Part shown: positions 31,601 to 60,149 of the stretch, piece by piece
How the letters are laid out: each line of letters begins with the position of its first letter
Numbering within the stretch: position 1 is the stretch's first letter
Assembly (NCBI GenBank): GCA_977020255.1
Contig: CDROCS010000703.1
Span: 62,001 to 126,000, forward strand
Reading direction: 5' to 3'
DNA length: 64,000 bases
From: Obrimoposthia wandeli
Lineage: Eukaryota
Notes under the pieces: generated by a model
Databases searched by the model: none
Told to the model about the DNA's origin: nothing
What the model saw: the letters and a program-made list of their open reading frames with translations, nothing else
Translations under genes and position numbers: made by a program

Positions 31601-34600
31601 TTTAACGAACATGGAATTTTTTGAAAAGTTGGTGTTCGTTATGTAGAGGTCTGACTGTGTGTATTTAAATGTGCATTTAAATAAAAAGTATATTACTAAC
31701 ATGACTGTAAATAACTATGCTCAGGAATACTTTTAGACTTTCCTTTCCTATGTTTAAAACAAAAGGATTTTAATCGATGACAGACGTTTTTGTCAGTAAT
31801 AGAAAAATCCAACCACACTTTGTAATACAGTCAGACCTCTACATAACGAACACCAACTTTTCAAAAAATTCCATGTTCGTTAAAAAAAGGAACGAACAAT
31901 TTAATAAACTTTTATTTATAAAACAAAATAAACTACAATAAGACATGTATTTTTTTTTTCCTAACCAAATAGTCAGTAATGTCTTTTGGTTTTTTAGAAG
32001 CTAAAATGTTTTTCAATTCTTGGGTAGCAATAACGCCTTCAAAACAGTTTTTAAGCATATATTGCTCGTATATTTACCGTTCGTTAAAAAAAAGTGTTCG
32101 TTATGTAGAGTGTTCGTTATGTAGAGGTCTGACTGTATATAGTTATGGAAGTTTGGCTTAAAAATGACCATACGTTTGTATTACCTTTGTCTAATTCTTA
32201 AGTTTTATGAGGTTACCTAATATCGTATCAGTTTTTCTAACTGTATCAGCGACATGAAATCTTAACCTTTAGACCATGAATAAATTTCTCCACATCAATT
32301 ATTAACAGTTTAAAAAAATTATATATTATTGAATCATTATATTTTATTATACAATTTACAAAATTTTTAGCGCTACTATACAAACTAAGAATGTTGTGTA
32401 TTGTTGATTTGGCGTTAAAAGTTGCAGGTTGATCTAGATACATACCACCTTTCATCATAACACGGGGTTTCAAAGTAGTAGTGAATTCACAATAAGATTA
32501 AAATCCATTCATATGGTGAGATTTGTAGGTGAACAAACCATCACTAGCCTCAGTACTTAATTGCTTCAAGAAAATAAATTATGAGGGGCACAAATAAAAA
32601 GAAAAAAAATCGACAAATTAGATGGAAAATGAATAATAAAAAATAGATCAAACAAAATTTACTATGTCCTAAAGCGCTTGTTAAATTAAAAAGAATATTA
32701 TAATTTTCAATATTTTTTACTACTCCCTAGTCAAAAGTAAAGCAACACTTAAAATATTCACTATCGAAAGTTTTGGTAAACTTATCAAATTATATTTGAT
32801 TAAAATAAAAATTCATGTTGACATACAGTTAATATTGCATTTAATAAATTTATTTATTCTCTTAAAATTTATACAGCAATTTTAACCTCGTCATAAATGA
32901 TTTTATACAATTAACCTAAATGATTTATTCAATAAAATCAGCTTCTATTTTCAAGGTCCCGAAGTTTATTATAAAGCTGGGTCCACAAATTTGGGGATTA
33001 TTCAGTGTGTATTGCTTCTAATTGTGGAGGCCTTCGTTTGTAGGCTGGATTCGTAGATAATCAAATAATTACTGATTATAATCGGTCCACTCCTTCTTGG
33101 ACTATGAGAAACTGTCAACTGTGAAAGGTAGCTTATTTTTCATTAAAATGTATACATTAGAAAATATTACAGGAATGTTTAGACCCCATTTTAAGCCACG
33201 GAACTCATCCCATATCATATTTGTAGATATGTTTCACCCTAGAGTTGATATCTTTATGAGACGGTTTAAAATCAATAAACGAGTAATTATGTAAACTTCA
33301 ACTGCAAGTAATTGAATTTTACATTCTGACCTCGAAAGAAGGACCTAAGTTCTCGAAAAGAGACAAAAGTTATCATGGAAGATCTGAAGATCTCAAAAAC
33401 CAGACAGTTCTAATGACCACGTCAGTATTTGACAGAATCGATTTGTAGACGAGATTTTAGATTATAATTTTGTTTGAAAATGACTGCACCTCTTATATTT
33501 GTTAAGAGTAGGGAGATGACAAAAATATGTAAATTTAAAAAATACAATAAACAAAAATTAATTTTATTAAATTTATTAAATCAACACAAATATATTTTTT
33601 TAAATTAAAAACATTTTTGCTTCACTCAAGGCCCAAAGAGGATGTACTTTGTCATTGCCATCAATATAGTATACATATTCCATATTTCTCCATCTAAATA
33701 TGTATCAATCAAATATCCTAGTTTTTCCCTCAAAACAAGACTGGAATCACTTTCAATCTTGAAAGAATTTTCTTCATATTCGTAACTTTCAAATTTTTTT
33801 TGAATTGACCAATATCAGATAATGATAAAGTTTCAATTTAATATTTATTTTCGGCTTTTGATATGTTTTCAGAATTTATAACACATTTATGTTGATGAAT
33901 TTTTAATATATTGGAAGGTTTATACTAATTTGTAACCAATATATAATTCTAATCGATTCATATAACTAAATCATTGAAGTTAATTGGATGAATTCCTTTT
34001 TTAAATTGTTCGATTGAAGGAAATATGTTATATTTCAATCGTCCAATTATAGAAGCTTAACAAGATATTTGCAAGAAATGAGCAACAAAATGACAAGTTC
34101 AGGCATATATAAAGCAGAAGTTATAGAATACTACTTTAGTCTCAGGGAACTCGTAAATTTAAAGCATAAAGGTAGGATACAAGATGATATTTCCTACTTA
34201 CCAATCAATGAGTGGAAGCTGTGACAATATGTGAAACAGTTTGATGATTTAACTTTTTTTCCTTCAATTTAGTATCTATTTTGGTTTTCATTGTCAACTT
34301 TTCTAGGAAATTGTCGTTTTATGGTATGCAAAACACCGTAAATGGCTAAATTAGATAAATCTACCATTTGAAATTAAAATCAGCATCATACAATCAGTCA
34401 CAGTTTCAGGCAATCTCAGAGAACTATTAAATCTTTATAAAATTTTTGAAAAATGAAAGGATGCATGTTTGAAAATATATATATATATATAACTTTTTTA
34501 AAAATGATCAAAATTGGAGCGATGAAGTATTTATAATATATATTATAGATAAAAAAAGATTATCCAATAATGTATAGTATTATAGATTATGATAAAACTA

Positions 34601-37600
34601 AATTTGTGGGAAGTCTTATGATCAAGTATTACAGTTAATTGATAAATCTAGTGTATATAGAATCCAAGAAATCTAAAAGTAAAGGTTTAAATAAACAATT
34701 CTATGTCAAATGGTGTGGATATTCAGTGAAACAAATCGAATAAAATAATTATATTTGATTTTACAAAGTAATAGTTTTTCTAATACACAACCTGATAATC
34801 CAGGAGAGCAGCATTAACGAAGTTTACTTATAGCAATACACCTGTCATCTTACAAAAATAATATAATAGGGTATACTAAAAATACGATTGAGAAAATGAT
34901 AGATTGTATTACAACTTCAATTTACTTAAAATCACAAAAAGTAACAGTACCTCGGTCTAATAAGTAATAATATAATACAAAATCAAAAAACATTCCATCG
35001 AAGCTAAAATACAAAAAAATCTCATAAGCAAGTAATTACAAGTAAAAATGTAGTTAAACTCATGAGAAATAAATCCGGTATATGATTATATGTGGTTGAA
35101 AAAAATCCGAATTAAATGATTTTGACTGCAATTCTAAAAGTAAAGAGGCTTTTAGAAAATATTTCTATCCTTATACAAGTTTCTGTGTTGCCGTGTAAAA
35201 ATTGGTAAGCGCAAAAAGGAATTATTGAAATTTAGAAAAACTCTTTTAGATATTGCTAATGTAAAAAAACGAAAAAATTTTATTTTAAAAAATATGGGTT
35301 TCATATGGGCTCTAACATCAGTTGTTGATTCAATTATTATAAGTAGTATAGCTGCGATATGGACATAAACAATTATTCGGAAAATACTCCAATGATATCG
35401 TTGCTTTAGTCCATGACCTTGACTGTTGTACCATCCACCGCCAGCAAAATGCTCTTATACGTTTGAAAAGTGTAAGTATGCCTCAGTTTGAAAAGTGTAA
35501 GTATGCCTCAGTTTGAAAAATTCTGAACACGGATAGAATTTTACATACATGCCTGAAATTTCCTTCCATGCACATATGGGAAAGGGATGGTTTAGACTGG
35601 ACACATAACTCTACTCACATTTTTAGTTTTAGCAAATTACAAAGAATTATAAGTAATACAATTAACAATCTATAATAATAACAATTTAAATGTAGTTTTT
35701 TTCCCTAATAATTGTTAATATTATGTTCAAATTCAGAAAGATTAATGTGGGGAAAAGGCTATCAAGAAATTGCAAATTTAATGAATATCAGTAGAAATGT
35801 AGCTAGAAATGTATGTCGTAATTGAGGAAAAAGCCATTAATTTAGCAAAATAGAAGACATTGCAATGTTTAGGCATCTAAATGTACAGTGAGATGATTAT
35901 TACAATCAAAACTAATGCTGAAATATTTTAAACTAACGTCATAAATGTATTGTCCCAACAAAGGTGGCCACATATATGTTTGAATGTCATTGAACAGTGG
36001 ATACACGATTCCCATAATTGATTTTAGGACTGTTTTCACTGGGGGAAATATTTTTTAGTTAAGATGCATCGGACGACTAAGCTACTTACTTTATGAAAAA
36101 TGAACTTCAGAGTCACCACAAGATGGAGGTAAAATTAAGGTTTGACTAATGTCTTTACTTAACAAATGCTGTCTTTTACAATTGATCGAGAATATTTTAA
36201 CTCCATAAAACTGAATTTAGACGATTTTGTACTGTATGCTGACAATAGTACACACGGTCAATTTTGTGAAGCAATTATTTTAGAAAATCTGGGCAACGTC
36301 ACGTATATGTACAGTCCTCATTTGAATATTATCGAGGATATATATTTGAAGTTAATGAAACGGTCTACGATAATGCTGAATTTGAGAATTATAATGCCTT
36401 TGAAAGAGAAATATCTACTGCGATTAAATATAAGAGATAAATAAATATAGAAGACGCTAAATATGAAAACCCTTGTATTTTGTTCCTAATTGTTTAATGG
36501 AAGTTATTCGAAAGTCTGACTATGTTTGAAATAAATACATTGTTTATTTGTTTGTGATTTTTACTTTGTTTTAAAAAATATGAAAAAATAAACAAAACAA
36601 CAGACATACGAAGACCTTGCTTTTATTCTTAGAAACCTTTCCCACTTGTCTTTCGGCTAACAAATCAAAAAACCAAACTAACAACAACAAACAATGAAAA
36701 AGAAAGCTTAACATTAAAATAACCAAATAGTTGTTTTCAAATAACTACTAAAAAACCAACAAAGAAAGAACCGAAGCAGACAACACTACAAGTAAAAGCC
36801 TCATGAAAACTTCATACAATAAACAAAATAAGTATCTTTTACACTTAAATAATAAAGACTTTAAAAATATAATAAAGAGCTTTGATTAACAGTTTTTTCA
36901 TGACCATTCTTAATGTATATTATACTCACACATGTTTGTTAAAATATATTCAAACTGCATATTATTTGAAAGTGAAAAAAATAAAAATACTAAATATATT
37001 AAAATATTTATTTTTTATTTCAAAAAATATATTTTGAGCTTTATTATGAGTCATACAAACATTCAAATTTCTGAATCACTTCTGAAGCTACAATATTTAT
37101 ATGCAAATACGAAACAGAAAATGTACTTTCACTACGTACAGCTCAAAATTATACAATATATTTAAGCCTTTAATTGAGATCTAGATTAGAAATTCCTTTG
37201 TCATACGATTCTAAAGATCTTCGTAAAATAGTTGTAGTTGATCCAAGAATATCTGCAAGATATTTAGGTGTTGATTTAGGACTTTATACATATACATTAC
37301 ACAGAGGGCTATGGCAAATGGGAAAAGTAAATCGAATGTGTAAAGTTGAACCATATTAAATGTCAGAAAATCAAAAAACGAAAAGAGTAGAAATGTGTGA
37401 ACAATTGCTGAAATATCCATTGGACAGCTATTTTATACGAATTATTACTAGTGATGAAAAAAAGGTTTATTTACGTCACTCAGATAAAAGAAACCGGCGT
37501 TTAGATGGTCAGTTTGCAGAAGTAGTAGAAAAGACGGAAGACAAGAAGAACTTAATCTGTGTTTGGTGAAATTTCGAACAAATAATTCTCTCTGAGGTGC

Positions 37601-40600: not shown

Positions 40601-43600
40601 ACAAATCAACTTTTTTATCAAAATATATAAAATATATAGAAAGGAGCGCTTTTATAAATAAATTTCGCTTTTGTACGTAACCCGTTTGTAACTTGATTTT
40701 TACTTTAGTTTCACTTTTGTCACGATCCAGACTCATGAACTTTTAAAAAACATTAATTTCCCAGTAACCGTACCAATATAAGGATCCATACACAGCTCAG
40801 CCGAGTAATGAGTGAGAACTTGGTGACGATATGACAATTTTCTCGCAGACAATCTCGGTCATGGTTACCACAACAGCCGCTGCTTGCTGACATGTCTGTG
40901 CCTGGAGTCGTTGACTCGCTACCCACGATATCGTAATCATGGAGGCGGGGGCTTTATTGCAATGGCAAACAGTAGTACCCTCGGAAGCGGGCTTGGAGGA
41001 GACTCAGATAGCAAGCACCACCATGGCAACCCTCACCACGGCAACAACCATCACCATAGCAGCAACCATCATCATAGTAACCACCCCATGGCAACATACC
41101 ACCATAGTAATGCTGCCTACAATCTCACACCCGCCTCCACTGACTTCTACCGCTGCCAACCTCCCTTGACTACCGGAGTTGGCATCGATACCAATCTGCA
41201 GATATATGACGACCTCAGCGCCGTGTCGAATAGTTCAGCGATGCTCATATCAGGAAGTAAAGCCACCAAGACCCCATCTGAAACAGCTGCAGATGAAGAC
41301 GCAAGACTTCTACCAGGCAGTGTATCGGGTAACGGTGGTTACTATGGCTACGTACACCATAACGGGTATCCACCTGGAAGTCAGCACAATGGCGGCCTTG
41401 GCTCAGTTTCCAGTTCTTTATCCAGGTAGGTTTATATCTGTGTATAATCGAAATTGTGCATGATCGAGGTTGTGCATGATCGATGTTGAGTATGATCGAT
41501 GTTGTGCATGATCAAGGTTGTGCATGATCGATGTTGTGTATGATCGTGGTTGTGCATCATCGAGGTTGTGCATCATCGAGGTTGTGCATGATCGAGGTAG
41601 TGCATGATCGAGGTTGTGCATGATCGAGGTAGTGCATGATCGAGGTAGTGCATGATTGGGATAGTGCATGATCGAGATTGTGCATGATCGAGGTTGTGCA
41701 TGATCGAGGTTGTGCATAATCGAGGTGGCGCGTGGTCGAGGTTGTGCATGATCGAGATTGTGTATGATCGAGGTTGCGCATGGTCGAGGTTGTGCATGAT
41801 TGAGGTTGTGCATGATCGAGGTTGCGCATGGTCGAGGTTGTGCATGATCGAGGTTGTGCATGATCGAGGTTGTGTATGGTCGAGGTTTTGCATGATCGAG
41901 GTTGTGCATGATTGAGGTTGTGCATGATCGAGGTTGTGCATGATTGAGGTTGTGCATGATCGAGATTGTGCATGATCGAGGTTGTGCATGATCGAGGTTG
42001 TGTATGATCGGGGTTGTGCATGATCAAGGTTGTGCATGATCGAGGTTGTGCATGATCGAGGTTGTGCATGATTGAGGTTGTGCATGATCAAGGTTGTGCA
42101 TGATCGAGGTTGTGCATGGTCGAGGTTGTGCATGATCGAGGTTGTGCATGATCGAGGTTGTGCATGATTGAGGTTGTGCATGATCGAGATTGTGCATGAT
42201 CGAGGTTGTGCATGGTCGAGGTTGTGCATGATTGAGGTTGTGCATGATCGAGGTTGTGCATGATTGAGGTTGTGCATGATCGAGATTGTGCATGATCGAG
42301 GTTGTGCATGATCGAGGTTGTGTATGATCGAGGTTGTGCATGATCGAGGTTGTGCATGATCGAGGTTGTGCATGATCGAGGTTGTGTATAATCGAGGTTG
42401 TGCATGATCGAGGTTGTGCATGATCGAGGTTGCGCATGGTCGAGGTTTTGCATGATCGAGGTTGTGCATGATTGAGGTTGTGCATGCTCGAGATTGTGCA
42501 TGATCGAGGTTGTGCATGATCGAGGTTGTGTATGATCGGGGTTGTGGATGATCGAGGTTGCGCATGGTCGAGGTTGTGCATGATCGAGGTTGTGCATGAT
42601 CGAGGTTGTGCATGATCGATGTTGTGTATGATCGTGGTTGTGCATGATCGAGGTTGTGCATGATCGAGGTAGTGCATGATCGAGGTAGTGCATGATCGAG
42701 GTAGTGCATGATCGGGATAGTGCATGATCGAGATTGTGCATGATCGAGGTTGTGCATGATCGAGGTTGTGTATAATCGAGGTTGTGCATGGTCGAGGTTG
42801 TGCATGATTGAGGTTGTGCATGATCGAGGTTGTGCATGATCGATGTTGTGTATGATCGTGGTTGTGCATGATCGAGGTTGTGCATGATCGAGGTTGTGCA
42901 TGATCGAGGTAGTGCATGATCGAGGTTGTGCATGATCGGGATAGTGCATGATCGAGATTGTGCATGATCGAGGTTGTGTATGATCGAGGTTGTGCATGAT
43001 CGAGGTTGCGCATGGTCGAGGTTGTGCATGATTGAGGTTGTGCATGATCGGGGTTGTGCATAATCGAGGGTGTGCATGATCGAGGTTGTGCATGATCGAG
43101 GTTGTAAAGTCAGTGTTGATATGTGTTGCTGATTACTTTGCAGACGCTACAGCAACACTCCTCCCCAGTACCCACTGCCAGTGGTTGCCGCTGGAGGAAG
43201 CAACGCCGGAGGGGGCTCATCCACTGGTGGTTATTACTTCCATCCCGGACTGGGTAATTACGTAATTGTGAGCGGCCCGATTGCTGATGGCGGAGGTGGT
43301 GGAGGCAGTCAATACACTGTGGGGACGGCTCCTCCTGGCTACTCATTGGTCCGACAGCAGCCGGTCTCGGTGCAGTCGCCTATCAACCAACTAGAAGATG
43401 AGGTGGTTGTCGAATCGGATAACAACTCGGCTCTATCGGCTGCGCTACAGAGCTCAACCACCCTGTCTCAGGTGCATACATATACAGCTTTGATTTTTTC
43501 CTATGTAAAGCCAATGATTGCATATTTTTTGCTTAATATTTTGCCCAATTTTCTTTCTTTAAGCATGTATTATACAAACCTTTTTCCTTTACCATGTTCC

Positions 43601-45283
43601 ATCGGTCTTCCACGGACAATTTCCTAAACGTACTGCTCTGATCGGAGTAATGTTCTCCTGTATAATTTGACATTATTTTTTCCCATCACATGTTTATATG
43701 AACCTTGTTCTTCTGTCCAACCGTCTTACTATTTCATCTGCGCCTCTTAACTCATATGTACTTAGAGGGCCCATTTCTGCAATATTGCATTAGAGTTTCC
43801 CTGTATTTATCCTCGCTACCTCTCTAAAAACTCCAAAATTAATATTCGTGGTAACATTTTCATCAACACCTGATATAAATAGCTGTTTCTAAAATCCCTT
43901 CGTTTCCCAAGTCGATATATTTTTTTTAAATCTTGAGAACTTCCAACTTGAGTATTTGTAGGACTGACCTTCAAATATTGGTAATGTTAACTTTCTTAAT
44001 TAAGTTAAATCAATTTGTAATACCATTCTACTTGAAATCATAGACGCTATCTGACTTATTTCTATTTCTATATGTTTTTCAATTTAGCGACAAATCCCCT
44101 CATCGTTTTTATAATTTTCATCTCAATTTCTTAGTCTCCTCTGTCCTGTATTCTTCCTCCAAATCAATAGCCATTTGCAATAGTCGGTTTAGCTCTTCCT
44201 CTACCTGTGCATAATAGAACTCATAATTCTCTAGCTTTATCTTCACTCCTTTGTTTGTCCCAAAGACTCGCATCACTGAATTACGCCTTATCGAGAGTTT
44301 CGCCTTTAATAACCATTTTCCAATCATTCCTTTACTTAACTTATTCTATTTGTTTTCCCCTTTCAATTGTATTTCTAACTGAACGCTGCTTTCTCTCTTC
44401 CTCTCTTACTGCTTCGTGCTTGACAATGTAATATGGACCGATGAAATATTTAAGGATGTGTGGCAGGTCAGATAAACCTTTAGCAATAAAGGAGAATCTG
44501 TTGTGTATAAAAAGATTTGCTTTGGAGTGGCTTTATCAAAAACCTCAAAATTAAAATTTATTTTATTCAGGGGATCTTGAATTGTTCAAAATAATTGTAA
44601 ATCTTACTAGCCCATGTCTGCGAAGCTAAGAAAGGCAGAAATTAAACTAATTTTACAACAAGGTAGAGCCCTCTTTGCATTGATATTAGAGTGCAAATCT
44701 TTTTAAACGAAAATTCCACGTAAGAACGTTTTATATATGTGAAATTGACTGTGCTTGACTCCTGAAAATATCCTGACCTAGATTTGTTAGACTTTTTAAT
44801 GGAGAATTAAGAAATATAGAGTCTACGAACACAAAACAAACAATCAGTTTAAAAATTCAAATGTTACGTAGATCAAATATAACTTTGAATAGTCATAAAA
44901 GTAAAATAATATAATTAAAATGGGAAATATACTCAAATTAAAAAGTAACCATTTTAAGCATTTAATTGAATTAAATTTTTTTTTATTGAAACATACTGTA
45001 TATAATCCGAGATGCACCCTCACAGGATCGTCATCCGAGTGCGATGGTCATGCAGTCTCCGCCTCAAGGCTTGGAGCAAGCCCCCATGCACCCCTGGCTA
45101 ATGCATGCTCCGCCCGCAACGCCGCAGCGCAGCGCTGATGGCCAGCAGCACATGTCCGCAACTTCTCTCCCAGCATATGTTACGGCCCCACAACCCCCTA
45201 AGGCCGTGTCTTCCACCGGCAGCGCTGACTGCTGCCCTTCTCATTTACCGGCTGCAGCGCGAGCAGCCAGCACCTCAAACTGA
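7577..45283 (+). CDS. 8-exon host gene: type I single-pass membrane protein (~623 aa) with signal peptide, Cys-rich Ig-like domain, Ser/Thr stalk, TM helix and low-complexity cytoplasmic tail
   Basis: Exons 7577-7619, 26030-26274, 27269-27494, 28307-28387, 30285-30398, 40849-41425, 43144-43471 and 45026-45283. All introns are GT..AG with compatible phases (1,0,1,1,1,2,0). The total of 1872 nt is one open frame. Exons are GC-rich against AT-rich introns. Family not recognised. Confidence 0.85.
9100..9760 (-). pseudogene. degenerate mariner transposase fragment
   Basis: Remnants IWLEKFKFDLTNLEY (HTH region) and KWIKYNNRKR...IWWSIADIKNYIILYTGE. Confidence 0.55.
13479..13658. mobile_element. 180-bp miniature element with family-A Maverick TIRs
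   Basis: AGTAGGTGGATGTGTCCAGTCTAATCCAC at the left end and its near-perfect inverse at the right. The right ~100 bp is the reverse complement of 52197-52290. No clean TSD. Confidence 0.8.
14826..15432 (+). repeat. 165-bp tandem repeat, ~3.7 copies, alternating A/B units
   Basis: gcagattgg recurs at 14826, 14991, 15156 and 15321; the unit is 55 codons. Confidence 0.9.
16835..17055 (-). pseudogene. Tc1/mariner transposase C-terminal fragment
   Basis: PPRSS..DFWW.VYLRNTVYK...FYKRCQICLESNGDHIE resembles WPPRSPDL..DF..WG.LK..VY...R...C....G.H.E. Confidence 0.65.
17500..17900 (-). pseudogene. CR1/L2-like LINE RT 3' remnant
   Basis: MLNKAVRIIFKLKK resembles the LQNKAVRII motif; collinear with the 19200-19690 fragment. 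Confidence 0.4.
18063..19076 (+). pseudogene. Tc1-like (DD34E-type) transposase with a 46-nt intron, degenerate
   Basis: Motifs TDEK..GLDGP, GGS.MIW, IFQQDNAPCH, WAPQSPDLNII(K)NVW and GGTTKY. Intron GTAAAG..TTCTAG at 18185-18230; frameshifts and stops. Confidence 0.85.
19200..19690 (-). pseudogene. LINE reverse transcriptase remnant
   Basis: VPQYSILG and FYADDT motifs in shifted frames near 19490-19590. Confidence 0.55.
19697..21390 (-). mobile_element. Tc1/mariner DD37E-type transposon with TIRs and TA TSD; transposase disrupted
   Basis: TIR ACGGGTGTATACTT(G/A)AAATCCGTA at both ends, each flanked by TA. Motifs IMDDESYF, VFVWVAI and FWFDLAS followed by 37 residues, then RPI(*)DFWG with the third catalytic position now TAG. 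Confidence 0.9.
20519..20907 (+). rRNA. 18S rRNA 3'-region fragment (~390 bp, pseudogenic insertion)
   Basis: Universal SSU motifs CATGGCCGTTCT.AGTTGGTGG, GCAATAACAGGTCTGTGATGCCCTTAGATGT and CCCTGCCCTTTGTACACACCG. Flanked by a TACC duplication (20514-20517 / 20908-20911). Confidence 0.95.
22515..22830 (+). pseudogene. Tc1/mariner transposase C-terminal fragment
   Basis: FQQDVASPH and PPRFPDRNPMDLFFYGYQKYKIY. Confidence 0.65.
26030..26274 (+). CDS. host gene exon 2, Cys-rich Ig-like N-half
   Basis: Acceptor ttcttgcag; encodes EAAGNAVVSIEPQYSPGQISVRCSV...CQYAKLSDSK; donor AAG/GTCAGC. Confidence 0.85.
26719..26965 (+). repeat. ~247-bp dispersed repeat, copy 1 (inverse of 32930-33176)
   Basis: Near-identical reverse complement on visual alignment. 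Confidence 0.9.
27269..27494 (+). CDS. host gene exon 3, Ig-like C-half (GQWRC) and Ser/Thr stalk
   Basis: Encodes VVLTYLVDPTRIRRSGQWRCIFKT...; donor GTGAGT at 27495. Confidence 0.85.
28307..28387 (+). CDS. host gene exon 4 (stalk), NAGNAG acceptor
   Basis: 81 nt, phase 1-1; acceptor catacagcag; donor GTGAGT at 28388. Confidence 0.75.
28729..29229. mobile_element. internally deleted Tc1-derived element (MITE-like)
   Basis: Inverted ends GAGTGCACTATTTT(T)AGTA; internal remnant DNSPAY...PSNAPDFSIIENI. Confidence 0.65.
30285..30398 (+). CDS. host gene exon 5, transmembrane helix
   Basis: Encodes EQLTRPELVLVLVITLGCSLLLNLCFLIRCVLLKSVL; donor GTACGT at 30399. Confidence 0.85.
30520..31100 (-). 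pseudogene. Tc1-like transposase fragments
   Basis: RGRQCGGCRIKMW and WPLG.SDVNIIKHVWKIL remnants. Confidence 0.55.
31444..31657. mobile_element. pogo/Tigger-like MITE, copy 1
   Basis: TIR CAGTCAGACCTCTACATAACGAACAC; TA on the left flank. Confidence 0.85.
31828..32135. mobile_element. pogo/Tigger-like MITE, copy 2, inverted relative to copy 1
   Basis: Same TIR, TA on both flanks; the interior is largely the reverse complement of copy 1. Confidence 0.85.
32930..33176 (-). repeat. ~247-bp dispersed repeat, copy 2
   Basis: Reverse complement of 26719-26965. Confidence 0.9.
33600..35615. mobile_element. internally deleted Maverick-like copy
   Basis: 33626-33770 (minus) IESDSSLVLREKLGYLIDTYLDGEIWN is homologous to ORF 52618. 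33915-34210 is homologous to the divergent promoter and ATPase start at 53200-53480. Contains an integrase-type chromodomain; family-A TIR ends at 35615. Confidence 0.75.
34555..34745 (+). pseudogene. Maverick integrase C-terminal chromodomain remnant
   Basis: PIMYSIIDYDKTKFVG...VYIE...GLNKQFYVKWCGYS; VKWxGY is the chromodomain signature. Confidence 0.7.
36160..36444 (+). pseudogene. possible LINE RT remnant
   Basis: VLYADNS resembles LYADD; no other support. Confidence 0.25.
37170..38062 (+). pseudogene. mariner (DD34D) transposase, degenerate, with right TIR-like end
   Basis: IITSDEK, LICVW, HDNAR and YSPDLAPSDYHRFRSM; terminal AAATACTTACGAGACACCTTAATA. Confidence 0.85.
38768..38870 (+). 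pseudogene. isolated fragment of the Maverick disordered-protein gene
   Basis: KLDEDEWWLFTD / GGGACGGTCTCAC matches ELDEDEWRLFTD / GGGATGGTCTCAC at 4050-4110 (minus). Confidence 0.65.
40849..41425 (+). CDS. host gene exon 6, juxtamembrane Cys cluster and His/Gly/Ser-rich tail
   Basis: Acceptor ttttctcgcag; overlaps ORF 40884-41429; donor CAG/GTAGG. Confidence 0.85.
41455..43105. repeat. 16-bp satellite (TGTGCATGATCGAGGT)n, ~103 copies, fills host intron 6
   Basis: Direct inspection; the 16-aa periodicity of the artefactual ORFs agrees. Confidence 0.97.
43144..43471 (+). CDS. host gene exon 7, Gly/Pro/Tyr-rich tail
   Basis: Acceptor tactttgcag; in frame with ORF 43181; donor CAG/GTGCAT. Confidence 0.85.
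43590..44450 (-). pseudogene. degenerate non-LTR (RTE-like) retrotransposon fragment
   Basis: Weak remnants (SYKYS; C-terminal RLG.CPW); coding-like composition inside intron 7. Confidence 0.35.
45026..45283 (+). CDS. host gene terminal exon 8
   Basis: Acceptor ccctcacag; in frame with ORF 45044-45283; ends in TGA. Confidence 0.8.
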   Translation, partial: DRHPSAMVMQSPPQGLEQAPMHPWLMHAPPATPQRSADGQQHMSATSLPAYVTAPQPPKAVSSTGSADCCPSHLPAAARAASTSN

Positions 45284-52064: not shown

Positions 52065-52617
52065 GCGCACACGGGGGGGTCAAGTGGCTTAGACTCCATC
52101 CTTCTACCTACTAGTATGGGTATTCATTTTGTTGGCACAATTTGAGGCACGAAATTTAAATATTTAGAAAGTTTTATTGTAATTCAAATTGTTATGAGTA
52201 GGTGGATGTGTCCGGTCTAATCCACCCCCTCACCGGGGGACACTTTAAAACCGTGCATGTGTATGGAGTGAAATTTCGTGCATGTGTCCATCCCACCCGA
52301 AGGGGGTACCCCTACATTTTTACAAAAATTACTTTTAAATTGACCGCTAATCTCAAAGGTGATTAGAGAAGACCACGGGAATCCATATTGACCCCGGTGG
52401 CTTATCGCAGACGAGATTTCAAATAATATGTTTATGTGAATATATTACTACTATTTGTAAGAATATAAATTACTACATGTTTGTAAAATATCTAGGTCAG
52501 TTTATAGGAGAAAAATAGGAAAGATTTATATAATTTAGAGGAGATAAACCAAATACCAGTCAAAATTCTTTTCAAAACATTAATTAAATCAAACATAAAA
52601 CAACATATTGGCTTTAC

Positions 52618-52809
52618 TCAAAGTCCAAAGAGGCTGCATTTTCCCGTCATCGGCAAAATATTCATTAGACGTATGGAGATATTCCATAGTTCTTCATCTA
52701 GAATTGGTGCAATCAAATATCCTAGATCATCTTTAAAAGTCAGACTGGGATCAGTTTCAAGCTGGAAATAATTTCTTTCATATACATAATCAAGAATGTA
52801 AAATCCCAA
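52618..52809 (-). CDS. orphan Maverick-associated ORF (fragment)
   Basis: Homologous, diverged copy at 33626-33770 indicates a real coding sequence. Confidence 0.55.
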   Translation of the reverse strand: MGFYILDYVYERNYFQLETDPSLTFKDDLGYLIAPILDEELWNISIRLMNILPMTGKCSLFGL

Positions 52810-52928
52810 AATATTTTTTCAATTGATCAATATCAGATGTTGTTAAAACTTCGATGAAATATTTATTCTCCACTTTTGATATTTTCACAGGATTCAAAAC
52901 TCCTATAATTTGATGCTTCTTTAATATA

Positions 52929-53165
52929 TTACATAGTTTTCCTTTTGCAATTCTTTCTGGATAAATTTATTCTTTCAATTGTCACAGGATTTACTAATGC
53001 AATCAGTTGAGCCTTATTCAAGAATCTGACTTTGTATTTGAAATATTGTTTTACTTCTTCATACATATCCTTATCCGATTCTTCAAACATTTCTATATCT
53101 TCATCACCGCTTAATATCCGTTGGCTATCATCCATCATTGATAATTGTCTTTGATATGAATGCAT
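52929..53165 (-). CDS. orphan Maverick-associated ORF
   Basis: 78-aa ORF transcribed divergently from the ATPase across a CCAAT-rich interval. Confidence 0.5.
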   Translation of the reverse strand: MHSYQRQLSMMDDSQRILSGDEDIEMFEESDKDMYEEVKQYFKYKVRFLNKAQLIALVNPVTIERINLSRKNCKRKTM

Positions 53166-53454
53166 TTATTATGATTTGTCCTCTAATGGCGCATTCTTTT
53201 ATACTAATTTGTAACAAGGACATGAATCTCATTGGTTAATATAACTAAAGTAGTGAATTTGATTGGACTAAATTCATATACCAAATCGAAATTGATTGGA
53301 AGAAATATATCATCCAATTATAATAGGTTTGCAAGATAATTACAAAAAATGTGCAATAAAAAAGCAGGTTCAGACATATATAAAGAAGATTTTATAGAAT
53401 ACAATTTTATTCCAATGAAACTCGTAAATAAAAATTATAAAGGTAGAATAGAAG

Positions 53455-53885
53455 ATGATGTTTCGTACTTACCATTCTAGTTTCAAAAATATTTATTGGC
53501 ATCATAGTGGAGGAGGGGAAAGCGGATTAACCAAAACAGAAGTTTGCAAGTTGAAGGGAATAAAATTTTATAAAGGTTTGGATGCAAATTGGTGTGAAAG
53601 ATTGAAAAAAGAAGATGTAATAATAATTAATGATTTGTATCAGGAAGCTAACAAGGAATCGGACTTTAATAATTTATTTACAAAGATTGCAAGAAATCGT
53701 GAAGTAACATTTATATTTATCACTCAAAATTTTTTTCACCAAGGAAGTCATCATATAACAATAAATCTTAATGTACATTAATTAGTTTTATTTAAAAATC
53801 CTAGAGATCAAACAGTGTAGATTTCATAGCCAGACAGGCATTTCCCCAAAATAAGAACTTTCTATTTGTTTCATTCTATGATGCT
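53455..53885 (+). pseudogene. Maverick/Polinton packaging ATPase (FtsK-HerA/A32-like), Walker A deleted
   Basis: VIIINDL (Walker B region), TFIFITQNFF, INLNVH*LVLFKNPRD, then ARQAFP. Confidence 0.85.
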
Positions 53886-54294
53886 GTAGCCTTCCTCTGC
53901 CGCGGAACTTTCTTCAATTTTTCCTCTTTCTCACGCTGAAGCTGGCGTGAGAGGGCATCATGCTGCCCTCGTGAATCTGGAAATATTACCGGTTCCGGAG
54001 TATCCAGTTCCGCAAGGAATTCGTCCAATCCAGCTTCATCCCAGTCCCTCTTCAAGTTCTCCCTAAATTTTGGCTTATACTCAATGAAGCCGGTGCCGTC
54101 TTCTGCAGGCGTCGTTGACTAGGTGGCGACTAATCTCCATTGGAGAGACTAGTATCTTCTCGTAAAAAAATGGGCCTGTCGTCCACTGGAGATAGGAGAA
54201 TCTGCTGCTGGCCAATCACCGCCTCATAAGAAATGAGCATTGTGGTGCGACATTTTCTCGAGTGTTTGGTCTTCCGCACCTCTGCTCGCTTTTT

Positions 54295-54893
54295 GGGGCA
54301 CTCTGGTAAGCTCATAAGCTTTGTTTCCAGCTGACTTTACTAGCCTGATATTAACAGTTAGTCTGCATTCTTCTATTATGGTTTTCAATAGTGTCAGTTG
54401 CCTATGCGCTAGTGCCGATCCAAGACCATGCGTTTTTACTCGTTTGTCTGCTGATGTAATTGACTTTACCCAGCCATGGACCGTAGACGAATCTGTATAA
54501 ATAAGAATTCACGACAGCCTCCATTTGATCGCACAATTAAGTCCTTTGACAACTGCTTCTAATTCTGCCAAATTGATATGAGAGGAGTCATCTTCCTTCC
54601 GCAACCAACTGAAGTCTTCAACTACCGAACCATCAATTTCTACTACGACTTCCATTGCGAGACTGCTAGCATCACACCATACTGTTCCTTCGATCGTATC
54701 AGTCACTCTCCAGACTCCTCGCATAGGATCGTTTTCAGAAACACGTTCCTCAATTTCTTTCAGCTTTCAACGAATTTACTCTCAACGTTGTCTTCCCAAT
54801 TAGTACTGTTTGTCAATCTTTTCAAATAACTACACGCCGGTCTCAACCATCCAGCTTTGGGAAAGTGTCCAATCATCTGACCGCAGTAGGGGG
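54295..54893 (-). pseudogene. Ty3/Gypsy pol fragment: RT connection and RNase H
   Basis: CGQMIGHFPKAGWLRPACSYLKR; VWCDASS...HINLAELEAV; TDSSTV...NKA.ELTRVP. Confidence 0.9.
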
Positions 54894-54954
54894 ATGTGGC
54901 ACTTCTGGCACAAAAAAAGGTATGTACCCCTGGGAGTACCCGTATAAGCGAATG

Positions 54955-55200
54955 TATGTGTAACGTAATAGTATATGTGCACCGCACAACGGTGTGTGTG
55001 TTGCGTAATAACATGTGTGTCACGTAACAGTATGCGTGTATTACGTGATAGTATGATTGTGTTACGTAATTACGTACTAGTATGCGCTTATTACATCATA
55101 AGGTGTGTGTATTACGTACCGAGACGGTGTGTATTTGTGAGTGTGTTGCGTCATAGTGTTGTGTGTTGCGTCGTCTGTGTTGCCATGGCAACCGCAGCAC
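54955..55200. promoter_or_regulatory. cluster of bZIP-like sites (TTACGTAA, TTGCGTAA, TTGCGTCA) and a perfect X-box palindrome
   Basis: GTTGCCATGGCAAC at 55179-55192; TTACGTAA at 55062-55069; repeated ACGT/GCGT cores. Confidence 0.4.
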
Positions 55201-56199
55201 GTGCTCTACTTTTGTTTTAATCTTCAAATTTTCACGCGACTTTTAAAATTTTCCGACATTTTGAAATTTTTGAAACAATTAAAATTTACAAAGAAATATT
55301 TTTAAAATTAAACTTTTTTATAAAGAAATTTTCAGAATAATAATTTACATAGAAATTTACAATTAGTCAAATAATTATCAGCTAGATAATTTTTACACAG
55401 TTGTGAATATGAATTAAATCTATTAGTCGTTGAATTAAATTTAATGTATATAGTATAATTTTTAAAGTAAATAGTAGTTAATATACAGTTGTAGTAGTAT
55501 TCTTATAGTGTTAATTTTAAAGTTATTAAACTATTATCTAAATAATAATTAACATCAGATTTAATGTTGAAATTATTTTGTTAAATGAATACATGTTAGT
55601 ATGAACCTTGACTTTTCATATGCAAAACTTGTATCTTACGTAACTAAATGTCAATACATGTGCATATGCTAAACCAAATAAATTGATCAAGAAGATTATA
55701 TAAGAAAACCTTTTATCATTTTTTATCATTATTTTAAAATGGAATCAATGTTACAATGTTAGCTCATATATTGGAGAGCGGCTGTTCACTGGAAGAGAAA
55801 ATAGAGCTGATAGGGCCATTTCTCAAGAAAGAAGCACTGGAGCCTAGAGAACAACCCGGATTTCTCTGCTTCTGGAGTGATGAAACCCCAGCATCCTTCC
55901 ACACCCAAGTTGGAAGTAGATGATCTACATGAGAATGCATCATCAGTCCTCTTTAGGACTTTTTGTTTTTAAAATAAATTTTAGTTATTTTATGAGTTTT
56001 CTTCTTTATTTAATATTTATTGTCTTTGACTCCAATGATAAAATAATTTTAAATGTATATGTTTTCTATTTTTAAAATAAGGTTACATCATATTTATATT
56101 AATACGTGTGTGTGTGTGTTTGATCTTTAATACCTCACAAATAATTCTTATAAAAATCTGATATAAAATATGTAAATTACATAAGGATAAATATTTATT

Positions 56200-56615
56200 A
56201 AATCATTAAAATTCAGTCAATATTCCATCAATAATCTTCTATACCGGGGTTACAATTCCACAGGTACTGACTTTGTATCCTTGAATTCTTATGCATAGAG
56301 ACCATTGCTTTGCTGAAGGAATTTCATTAACAATAATTCCATTCTCACGCTTGAAAATAGCTTCATTTCCTTTGATTATAAATTTTTGTTTTCTTGAATT
56401 TGATATTTGATTCCAAGTTGTTTGAAAAAGTTATTGATTCGGTCTACATCTACTGAATTCAAATTTAAAACATGATAGACAAATTTAAGCTTCTCTACAC
56501 TAGCAGGGAAAATAAAATTATAATTCTGAGGTTTCTTCAAAAAGTGCATCTCATATGCGTAATAATTATGAACTCGTTGATAAAGATCTTCCTCATTCAT
56601 ATTGGCGGTATACAT
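56200..56615 (-). pseudogene. orphan gene divergent from the TBP-like gene, frameshifted
   Basis: ORF 56376-56615 continues in a shifted frame as FIIKGNEAIFKRENG...CIRIQGYKVSTCGIVTPV. Confidence 0.45.
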
Positions 56616-56745
56616 AATTATTACAGATAATAATATAAAATAATCAATTGTTTATCCTATAATTCTCTATTCTAATTGGATAACAATAATAATATTGATT
56701 TTTCAATTTAGTATAAAAGACTGAACTTGTTTATATTATTAAAAC

Positions 56746-57286
56746 ATGTTTCTTCACAATAATAAATTAGTGAATATCAATTATAAGGGAAAGGTCAAAG
56801 GTTGTATCAAGGATTTACCATTTCGCACTTCAAAACCGCATCAGTATCGACACAAATGCGCAGATTATACGTTAATAATTTTCAAAACTGATACATAATT
56901 TTATATTAAAATATTAATTATAATATTTAGGCTCGTGTAGAATAATGGGTTGTAAAGCAAAATTAGATGAAAGCAAGTTGCCATTTAATATAAAAATTGA
57001 AAGAATTCAATCAATCACTGTTAGTACAAATTTCAAAGAAGCGCTAAACCTGAGCAAGCTGAGCAAAAGTATGGGAATTGAAGCTGTCTATGAACCAGAA
57101 ATATTTCCAGGACTGCGATATATCAACTATAATTCGCTATGCGTAAATATTTTCGCAAGCGGCAAGATTATGATATTAGGTATAAAAACTCTAGACTATG
57201 AATATTTTATTGACACAATTTTGTATAATATATCTTCTCATACTTGTATTTTTCTTATTCACTCATCTGATTTGCATTTATATTGA
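56746..57286 (+). pseudogene. divergent two-repeat TBP-like protein (~166 aa) with a 40-nt intron whose donor reads AT
   Basis: Exon 56746-56890 plus 56931-57286 gives YTLIIFKTG/SCRIMG (repeat 1) and YEPEIFPGL...VNIFASGKIMILG (repeat 2). TATAAAAG at 56712. Confidence 0.8.
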
Positions 57287-57449
57287 TTTATTTTATATAA
57301 CAAAGCTTATTTAGTTCTAATATAAAGATGAATGAAGTGATTGTTGATGATGTTCCAATTAAATCTACTCCAGATAATGTGTCTCATACCGCAATCAAAG
57401 TAATTCCTTATAATATAAGATAAAATAAAATAATCTAACTTTTTAAAAG

Positions 57450-57990
57450 ATGGAAAAAGTAAATGAAGAAACAGAATCAGAAGCAGTAACACCGGGAAGA
57501 ACAGAATATGCTATGGTTATTGAAGAGCATCGATTGAAATTTTTAAATTGATTATATTTAATAGAGCATATAATAACCGATGCTTCTAGTATGGAAATGA
57601 ACCATATGAGACGTATTTTTAATATATTGTTTAATTCTAGATATTGTCAACTTTATAAAAAAAGGTTAGTCAGGACAAAAATTAGTGAAATTCTAACAAA
57701 TAAACTTTATATTGGTAATTATCGTGATGGGTTTAATGAAACTAGTCTACTCAAATTCGGATTTACTCATGTTATCAATACATCTCCTTCAGATCATATT
57801 CAATATAAAGAACTAAAGTTTATATCTGTTTTCATCAAAAAGAGAGAAACAGTGATGAAGTATTATAAACTAACTAATAGTATTATTCAGGAAAATATCG
57901 AAAACTGAGGAAATGTTTTAGTTTGTGGACATTATGGGATTGATCTCTCTGTGGGTTTTGTTATTCTAATCTTCTAATCTTCGATTCTAA
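57450..57990 (+). pseudogene. dual-specificity phosphatase-like gene, degenerate
   Basis: ISEILTNKLYIGN, FGFTHVIN, then after a stop GNVLVCGHYGIDLS at the HCxxGxxRS position. In-frame stops at ~57547 and ~57906. Confidence 0.75.
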
Positions 57991-59900
57991 ACCCATACTT
58001 TAATAACATATTGATAACCTCTTAAGTAGATACTATCTCTTCATTAACAACTATATCATCTACGTAAAAATCCGTTTCACTCGCCACCGTCTGATCCATT
58101 GACAAAACCCTCCCTACGATTTCAGACATAATCTTTGGAGCTACGTTGAGTCCAAAACCAAGACGCGTTAAACAGTATCGAACTCCTATGTAAACTACAA
58201 CCTGATACTTCCACAAACTTGGGTCAACATGGAATTGTAAATAAGCCTTCCTTAAATACACAATGCTCAAGTTGTCTCCCAATCTCCTCCATTCTCTCAG
58301 CTTTTCACCACATACTTCACTTTGAGATGTATGGCTTGAAACATAATCGTTAAGCTCTCGGTAATCCATCACATGACGAACTTTTCCTTTGTTTTGCTGT
58401 GGAACGGCCATGGAAGGTATTACACCAGTGTGCTCACCATCATGCTTTCTCAGCCAACCTTGTTCTATCCATTCTTCAATCTCTTCTTCAAATTGATTTA
58501 GTACCTCATCCTTTACCCGATATTGACTCACCTGGTTCTGTAGAGCTGGCTTCACGATTCCTTCTTTCCAAACCCATCTCACGATTCATCTTCCATTCTC
58601 GAACTTTGCATGGAAATCCTTATCCACGACATCCACGACTTCTCCCTGAATGGGATTCTTCATTCCTCCTTCATGTACACAAGTTTCATTCTTTGACTTG
58701 AATGTACTATTCACTGTAGAACCACATCCAACTTTTCTTCCATCGCACAATCAACTGTTGGCTTTAAAGAGTTTGTCCGAAAGTACATTCACATGAGCAT
58801 CAAGGCCAACAGACATAATTGATTTGGCCAAACCTAACATTCTTTCCATCACCCCTTACCCAAATCTCACCAAGTATATTGACAGCATCTATTCCCAACA
58901 ACATGTCATAGCCAGGTACTATACGAGAAACGATGCAATTTAGCCGAATTTTACGTCCATTGACATTAACTTCACATTCCATGCACGTCCTCGAATCTAC
59001 ACTTTTTCCGTTCATTAATGTTGTGTTATGATCAAAATTTGTGATTGATCCTTTGACTGTCAACGCATCCGAAAGAATAGATCTCAAACATCCCGTATCA
59101 ACCATTGCTCTTAAAGCTTTAGTTCCAACATGGATGGTAACAGTTGGAATATACGCCGTATCATTGGGAGAGCCACTGGTGCATACGGACTCCCTTAGTG
59201 GTTTTTTGATTCTCGTTTGGGACATACTGGCGCCAAGTGACCAACTATATTACAGATGTAGCATCTGCGTTTTTCTTCCACATAGCAGTTTCTAGAAACA
59301 TGGCCTTCATCTCCACATCGGAAGCACTTGATTCCTGAATTAATTATCCTTTTTCTACGATGAGCTGCGATAGCTCCAACTTGGCAGATACCTTCAATTT
59401 TAATTTGTTTAGTCATCCTAGTCCGGGCTTCAGCTATAACTTGCTCTAAGGAACAGTTTCCACACTTCATCGAAATTTCCAGAGCTTCTGAAGTGTCTGA
59501 AGGCAGGCCAGCGACTAGCGCCAATATTACAATGTTATCTCCCATACCAATCTTTGATGATAAATCTTTCAATTCCAACACAAACCGATCGACTGATTCT
59601 CCGAAGTATCACTTCCTTTGACTGAATCGCTTAAACGCCTCGAGCTGACCTATCCCATAGGTATCTCTTAATCGATTCATAATTGATTCTGCGTCCTTAT
59701 TTTCGTATTCTTCTAAGTTGATAAATATCAAAAAGGCTTCACCTTTCATTCTCAACGGAATAATTGAACTTAATTTTTTCTCCAGTCCTAGCAGATTGGC
59801 CTTCAGTTTTATCTCACTAATCCACTCATCCACATTCGACGTCCCATAGAAAATACTGATGGTCTTCAATTCCTTCATAGCCGAAATAGCTTGTAGACAA
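57975..59900 (-). mobile_element. Ty3/Gypsy retrotransposon 5' part: gag, 2x CCHC knuckle, protease, RT (degenerate)
   Basis: CFRCGDEGHVSRNC and CYICNIVGHLAPVC; MVDTGC...LLGID; VMDYRELN, RLGFGLNVAP and YVDD. Confidence 0.92.
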
Positions 59901-60149
59901 ATTGTAAATCCAAGATGGCTTGAAAAAAGATATATTTAAATTCTGCCGTTACACGGATTATATAATATTAAAACAAGACTTCAAACAACATAATATCTAG
60001 TAAAGTGGCATGATCATTCTACTCCAACGTGGTTTCAGTCAAATCAGATCGAAAGTAACTTTATGTGACTTGACCATCAAATGGTTGAGAAAAAACAACC
60101 TTATAATAATGCTACAATTTATAAATTTGCTATAAAACTTGGTGATGAC

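Follow-up and report, generated by a model that had tools for sequence, protein, structure and literature searches.

A shortened TATA-binding protein gene of Maverick elements in Obrimoposthia wandeli and a candidate promoter box for it

The mini-TBP gene and its carrier element

The window, by which we mean the whole 64,000-nt stretch of O. wandeli DNA analysed, contains a two-exon gene for a TATA-binding protein (TBP) homologue, here called mini-TBP, inside the left part of a truncated Maverick element of a family that we designate A (Table 1). Exon 2 matches the Pfam TBP family (PF00352) above its cut-off, with an E-value of 7e-13, and exon 1 alone has no Pfam match. A protein search yielded 16 candidates, 14 of them relatives, which come from metagenome datasets, are intronless, encode 145–164 aa and are 42–61% identical to the mini-TBP. 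Because both exons align end to end with these 14 relatives, without a gap at the junction, the 40-nt piece between the exons is an insertion at one Gly codon. A 40-nt GT..AG intron is present at 27 of 30 family A loci, the window copy being counted among the 30; the exceptions are the window copy itself (AT..AG), one copy with TT..AG and one with a one-base deletion. Ten copies from diverged families carry an intron of 35–40 nt in the same Gly codon, with GT-AG borders in eight, and the intron is absent from family B (L097) and from the metagenome relatives examined. On these comparisons, splicing of the mini-TBP intron is well supported. In contigs from four sequencing runs of unrecorded type, all of one sample, none of the 15 joints listed out of 35 fell at 56890/56931, a result with no bearing on splicing. 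The window copy opens with AT rather than GT and therefore probably cannot be spliced; with this donor, and with its element cut at 57964, it is probably a dead, broken fragment that likely makes no protein. The first-pass annotation had proposed that removal of the intron restores a two-repeat TBP, which holds for the exons, as the alignment of intronless relatives attests, but probably not for expression of this particular copy.

Table 1. Positions of the features discussed, in window coordinates
Feature	Position	Strand	Remarks
Older Maverick remnant	33589..35405	+	TBP pieces at 34300-34444 and an integrase piece
Maverick family C remnant	52477..53886	+	Deletion at 53477 joins its own TBP start (53415-53477) to mid-ATPase
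Gypsy-like LTR retrotransposon piece, left of Maverick	54130..54884	-	By eye, the RNase H side
Left terminal inverted repeat of TBP-bearing Maverick family A	54885..55493	+	Begins AGTAG; matches both ends of the C302 copy; inner end approximate
Small ORF of family A element	55682..55916	+	Frameshifted in window copy
Predicted T7 gp2.5-type ssDNA-binding protein (SSB) gene	56209..56651	-	Divergent from TBP; three frames compared with the C376 copy
Canonical TATA box (TATAAAAG)	56712..56719	+	34 nt 5' of TBP start codon
TATAAACA box inside family A TBP promoter	56728..56735	-	Opposite strand, facing SSB gene
Mini-TBP exon 1	56746..56890	+	145 nt; shortened N-terminal repeat
Phase-1 intron of mini-TBP gene	56891..56930	+	40 nt; non-canonical donor in window copy
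Mini-TBP exon 2	56931..57286	+	356 nt; strand S5 and whole C-terminal repeat with YEPEIFPGL stirrup
Accessory ORF	57447..57964	+	N-half of dual-specificity phosphatase by resemblance; element cut at 57964
Gypsy-like piece, right of Maverick	57965..59935	-	Reverse transcriptase by eye; protease and zinc knuckle by Pfam

Within the window, the family A element survives only at 54885-57964, between two Gypsy-like parts, and it likely inserted into a Gypsy-like element and later lost its right ~12 kb. Its accessory ORF, which we take to be akin to the N-half of a dual-specificity phosphatase, has no Pfam match. The host genome holds at least 150 copies of exon 2, 92–100% identical; among the 30 top loci, which were picked by protein score, the median exon 2 identity is 99.4%, and the window copy is 97.7% identical to the rest. 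A within-family pN/pS of 0.09 was discarded for the reason that its 30 loci had been chosen by that score. Four family A copies were read over 28–40 kb: two are complete (14.9 and 15.1 kb) and the other two are each truncated at one end. In the C243 and C302 copies the ends read AGTAG..CTACT, that is, Maverick-type repeats starting with AG and ending with CT, and perfect target-site duplications of 6 bp flank both of the two copies that retain both ends. The gene order is small ORF, SSB-like gene (minus strand), TBP, phosphatase-like ORF, A32 ATPase, small core gene, rve-chromo integrase, probable minor capsid, small gene, major capsid, protease, a DEDD-like gene called from its motif by eye, and pPolB.

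Several of these core genes were assigned by profile: the integrase (rve, PF00665, E of 6.5e-14, plus a chromo domain), the A32 ATPase (PF04665, E of 8e-7) and the adenain-type protease (PF00770, E of 7e-6). The pPolB reaches PF03175 with E-values of 2e-4 and 2e-5, under the curated cut-off, and is 39–56% identical to a single 1089-aa ORF of the related locus L056. The major capsid has no Pfam or PDB sequence match, and PHROGs has none for capsid or TBP; the call rests on the 57%-identical L056 relative, which scores 0.98 to a double jelly-roll (DJR) cluster. The conserved ORF between integrase and capsid is a minor capsid (penton) gene by position only, with no family match. Terminal repeats, 6-bp duplications and core genes around the TBP, which lies inside the repeats wherever copies were read, show that the TBP-bearing element is a Maverick/Polinton, a connection that the initial annotation had drawn from context only. 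Separately, at C243:543500-569100 the family A copy is nested in a larger element with multi-kilobase inverted repeats, and in L117/L118 (contig C503) a single core block has a TBP-SSB module on either side, the two facing opposite ways, which suggests inverted duplication of the left module.

The annotation had also stated that the TBP shares promoter motifs with a nearby Maverick block. That block, at 52.5–53.9 kb, belongs to a different family (88–93% identical to L107, with an ATPase piece 70% identical to that of family A), but the TBP does have its own Maverick, which starts at 54885. The window holds two further TBP gene remnants, 53415-53477 and 34300-34444, from other Maverick families. 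Elsewhere in it lie a host-like gene (40800-43630) whose N-terminal exon is rich in His and which a long tandem array of 33-bp units interrupts, and further tandem arrays at 49.7–50.3 kb and 60.6–62.4 kb.

The conserved neighbour of the TBP (window 56209-56651; L097:1828-2211) is likely the ssDNA-binding protein of the element, judging from a modelled relative with an OB fold of the T7 gp2.5/ASFV CP312R type: the top four matches of the model are Enc34 SSB, T7 gp2.5, DUF2815 and ASFV CP312R, with Z of 6.8–7.8, under the line of 8 that the structure tool sets for a 'common arrangement'. The SSB gene had no useful Atlas match. The protein resembles uncharacterised giant-virus proteins, and its gene seems to contain an intron in several metagenome relatives. 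Cargo identified by Pfam in related elements comprises a ubiquitin-conjugating enzyme and a dual-specificity phosphatase (L069:225-719; L051:4008-4316).

Fold, conservation and ancestry of the mini-TBP

The structure was predicted for P0002, a relative ~60% identical to both exons, rather than for the product of the window copy. The model (pLDDT 95.4) aligns to human TBP (5fur_A) over 146 of 147 residues (Z 13.9, rmsd 2.3 Å) and matches TBPs only, with a Foldseek E-value of 3e-9, the next unrelated fold standing at Z 6.6. It contains no helix of at least four residues before residue 83, in repeat 1. On this model, the mini-TBP appears to be a two-repeat saddle without helices H1 and H2. The repeats are unequal, the N-terminal one being shorter by ~24 residues, and the compact two-repeat fold described at first needs correction in this respect.

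To compare residues we used yeast numbering, taken from Table 1 of PMC12529657 and our own alignment. Like cellular TBP and TRF (PF00352; human 5fur_A, yeast 1ytb), the family has a two-repeat saddle and, over 145 family rows, keeps the intercalating residues F116 (99%), F190 (98%) and F207 (100%), N69 of the paired Asn (95%) and the acidic TFIIB stirrup (E/D186 93%, E188 97%) together with P191. Unlike them, it is short (~145–165 aa), is mobile, forms a separate clade and has a polar DNA face; the F99 column holds P, K or R, and N159 is replaced by S or T in 98% of the rows. We take yeast F99 to correspond to Arabidopsis F57. The distance between N69 and F116 is 36 residues compared with 47 in cellular TBP, and that between T124 and N159 is 22 compared with 35, these shorter spacings recurring in most of the 145 rows. 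Fixed changes comprise V71N (80%), A100P (96%), V122R (98%), T124M (100%), I194R (76%), V203C (78%) and L205N (100%); the mapping of I194 and V203 hangs on the position of a gap, for which hhalign gives support and HMMER shifts C113 by one. These substitutions, the loss of F99, N159 and H1/H2, and an identity to cellular TBP of about one third bear out the earlier remark that the protein differs strongly from canonical TBP. The three positions behind the altered specificity of yeast TBPm3 are I194, V203 and L205, according to the accessible part of PMC1636458, and helix H2 crosslinks to TFIIA and NC2, according to that of PMC2577341. Overall, the mini-TBP gives the appearance of a saddle remodelled for another site while still presenting a TFIIB surface.

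A gene with no role for the element, either a host TBP/TRF paralogue or a recent capture from the host, would account for the spliceosomal intron, but this origin is extremely improbable given the distribution of the family. The intronless metagenome relatives are more similar to the mini-TBP than cellular TBP is, the copies number at least 150, and the association with element genes extends far beyond the host: other element genes are present at 27 of 39 metagenome loci, with most of the core set in L056, L069 and L074, and each of 10 further elements picked by their ATPase yields a TBP match in the 19 kb that were read, in nine cases no more than ~3 kb upstream. At 25 of the 29 other loci an ATPase comes after the TBP inside the 1.5-kb flank. 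Distances between TBPs and between ATPases correlate (Mantel rho 0.71, n=16, falling to 0.43 once the two most distant are dropped). A TBP profile search gave 50 clusters at E-values up to 1e-30 among 1.84 billion representatives; an IMG/VR scan had no match with TBP, single ATPase or capsid, and three distant loci each were found there with ATPase and integrase alignments. Exon 2 dN/dS has a median of 0.19 and a maximum of 0.40 in the 14 pairs with dS of 0.1–1.5, out of 231 pairs from 22 sequences (three more were dropped for stops), and on this sequence evidence the family is under purifying selection.

Phylogeny likewise sets the mini-TBP apart. The host's own TBP genes are on contig C238 and its TRF-like genes on C60, C1092 and C968, and the host TBP exon has no intron at the site of the mini-TBP intron. 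In a 51-row tree, which was built without giant-virus TBPs and hence contains no Nucleocytoviricota homologues, 34 element-type rows form one side of a branch with 100/98 support and host TBP falls among eukaryotic TBPs, although AU tests leave room for host TBP (p 0.155) as well as host TRF (p 0.43) inside the element group. The grouping with a single-copy host TBP-related factor, or the copies unlinked to Mavericks, that would have spoken for a host gene were not observed. L085 and L134, longer forms that by sequence apparently keep H1/H2, branch near the midpoint root of this tree, which suggests stepwise trimming; in an earlier quick tree, which included a misframed host row and two mislabelled rows, they were nested instead. 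Among the host genes, the two TBP genes of C238 (L089) lie head to head, less than 1 kb apart, the TRF-like genes L092 (C1092) and L091 (C60) form an intronless pair, and fragments of Polinton PolB and integrase lie 0.6–1.5 kb downstream of the C1092 copy.

The TATAAACA box and a proposed late-promoter factor

The commonest 8-mer in 13 Maverick core blocks is TATAAACA, with 80 sense and 0 antisense occurrences where 5.7 are expected; the blocks are related to each other, so these counts are not independent. Over the whole window it occurs at chance (10 compared with 8.7 expected), and canonical TATAWAWR is not enriched in the core blocks (53 compared with 64.7). Of 149 boxes, 70 are found 30–55 nt ahead of an ORF start, compared with 15 of 248 control 8-mers; the other 79 boxes fall outside this spacing. 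TATA boxes usually lie ~30 nt from the transcription start, a distance that, with a short leader added, fits this spacing. The box precedes 10 of 13 ATPase genes, the other three having none within 65 nt, and 0 of 17 TBP genes; a canonical TATA box was present at only 7 of the 17 TBP genes. It is not limited to structural genes: some SSB genes and accessory ORFs also have one in front, as does the DEDD-like gene. We ruled out a 3' signal, since the box is upstream of the ATPase even in the head-to-head layout of L073. A small ORF that starts with Met-Gly, has Cys-Cys or Cys-x-Cys ~17 residues on and overlaps the integrase start (L033:2722-2952; L050, L067, L073, L074) lies 33–48 nt behind a box in four of these loci, the box of L067 being a variant; it possibly encodes a lipid-anchored virion protein.

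In the available DNA of L131-L133 and L144-L146 we found no TBP match and no box before core genes, a weak control as these loci are distant (24–43%) and partial; L146 has five boxes, of which a tandem repeat accounts for three. Among the elements sampled, the host genome yielded no family lacking a TBP. Since our search found no close relative of that kind, the protein–box link is inseparable from shared descent.

We favour, with somewhat better than even confidence, the reading that the mini-TBP is the late-gene promoter factor of the element, predicted to bind TATAAACA and to recruit host TFIIB and RNA polymerase II. Host TBP would first transcribe the TBP gene from its ordinary TATA box, and the host spliceosome would remove the intron. 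The mini-TBP would then bind TATAAACA, presumably a weak site for cellular TBP, through a DNA face that is remodelled and has become more polar (V71>N, V122>R, T124>M, N159>S, I194>R, V203>C and L205>N, with F99 lost), the kept acidic stirrup E186/E188 would recruit TFIIB, and the loss of H2 may free it from control by TFIIA and NC2. The packaging ATPase, capsid and neighbouring genes would thereupon be transcribed with very short leaders. More tentatively, and with slightly less than even confidence, we propose that a widespread clade of 15-kb Polintons operates a one-protein early-to-late switch, in which a TBP stripped of H1/H2 and one Phe, re-specified to TATAAACA (a strained Hoogsteen site for cellular TBP), recruits TFIIB and Pol II outside TFIIA/NC2/TFIID control, forming a natural orthogonal TBP-promoter pair, here with a host-type intron common to several families. 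The first-pass suggestion of a factor for element-specific expression finds indirect support in the box, and the copy in the window is itself a broken fragment. For its other suggestion, competition with host TBP, we found no support.

The properties of the box with respect to cellular TBP bear on whether it needs a dedicated reader. In the accessible parts of the sources, cellular TBP binds a C(-25) TATA variant (1qn3), G-C Hoogsteen pairs lie beside Arabidopsis F57 in that complex (PMC5902632, PMC8643651), and TATAAACG gave 27% of the activity of TATAAATA in plant protoplasts (PMC10005294). TATAAAC is thus partly usable by host TBP, and the box need not require the element's factor. Host TBP might accordingly read TATAAACA as a weak TATA box, with the mini-TBP serving as a repressor or decoy on element or host promoters, or titrating TFIIB, for latency or host shut-off. 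A saddle with the stirrup but without H2 could block assembly of a normal complex, and a reverse box does lie inside the family A TBP promoter. We nevertheless consider this unlikely: the strict off-consensus 8-mer, in blocks where TATAWAWR is not enriched, is better explained by a dedicated reader, and the DNA face is not host-like but remodelled and fixed.

A purely architectural function with no part in transcription, in which the mini-TBP acts beside the SSB at the terminal repeats and bends the DNA there to serve replication, excision or packaging, would suit a gene that often adjoins an SSB-fold gene or the ATPase. It is very unlikely, however, since it leaves unexplained both the conserved TFIIB stirrup and the TATA-spaced boxes before ORFs, and the left terminal repeat in the window contains no TATAAACR.

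Relation to known viral TBPs

Nucleocytoviricota encode their own RNA polymerase, and in this they differ from the 15-kb Maverick, in which no RNA polymerase gene was seen. They share with it a viral TBP fold (ASFV B263R-like and mimivirid TBPs; poxvirus VITF-3, in the accessible part of PMC12917281), and the P0002 model matches Nucleocytoviricota TBPs at a best Foldseek E-value of 3e-8 and 8–19% identity. The TBP mimics of beta- and gammaherpesviruses, such as KSHV ORF24, likewise combine a viral TBP fold with a polar DNA face and are proposed to read an off-consensus late box with host Pol II (PMC12529657, PMC7498053, as far as these are accessible). According to the accessible part of PMC12529657, ORF24 differs in being a multi-domain protein that binds the Pol II CTD, has five further viral factors as partners and does not possess the TFIIB acidic residues. 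By comparison, the mini-TBP appears in the model to be a bare, shortened saddle that keeps those residues: the saddle takes up all 147 aa of P0002, with no N-terminal Pol II-binding domain or C-terminal DNA-binding extension as in ORF24.

The resemblance of the polar face to that of ORF24 raises the possibility that the mini-TBP reads its box independently of TFIIB, in the manner of KSHV ORF24 or poxvirus VITF-3, and relies on a partner encoded by the element. This is quite unlikely in our estimation, as ORF24 has extra domains and no acidic stirrup, whereas the far smaller mini-TBP keeps E186/E188, and no TFIIB-like gene was found in the family A element. As to the host factor, the core of host TFIIB is spread across exons.

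Vertebrate Mavericks (Barreat and Katzourakis 2021, PMC8097293) share with family A the terminal repeats, 6-bp duplications, size and core genes. In the accessible part of that paper TATA and TBP are unmentioned, intact genes are reported to be intronless, and two modules face inward, unlike in family A, where the core genes lie on one strand. A further precedent is a midsize linear dsDNA element that bears a TBP-like gene and a Polinton-type PolB (Starrett 2021, PMC8502044; preprint 10.1101/697771); the gene is present there as a legend abbreviation only, with no family, structure, intron or promoter box described in the accessible part. Our literature search, figures and bioRxiv supplements being outside it, found no account of a Polinton-like TBP beyond this figure label, and no TATA passage in PMC11161782 or 10.64898/2026.06.19.733378. 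Viral TBPs were thus already known from herpesviruses and Nucleocytoviricota; what is added here is the shared intron, the TBP beside the ATPase in every element sampled, the box statistics and a link between the lost Phe and position 7 of the box. The mini-TBP is a real conserved Maverick gene, a variant of viral TBP mimicry.

Maverick virions are unobserved, according to the accessible part of PMC8097293, and in the literature on these elements we found no description of how they time the expression of capsid genes. The window's own TBP copy matters little in this regard; a conserved element-encoded TBP together with a matching box provides a direct, testable model for this timing. If the model is correct, the element would commandeer Pol II by a viral route of very small size, its TBP would offer a natural experiment on which surfaces of the fold can be dispensed with, and protein and box together would be a candidate for an orthogonal promoter system.
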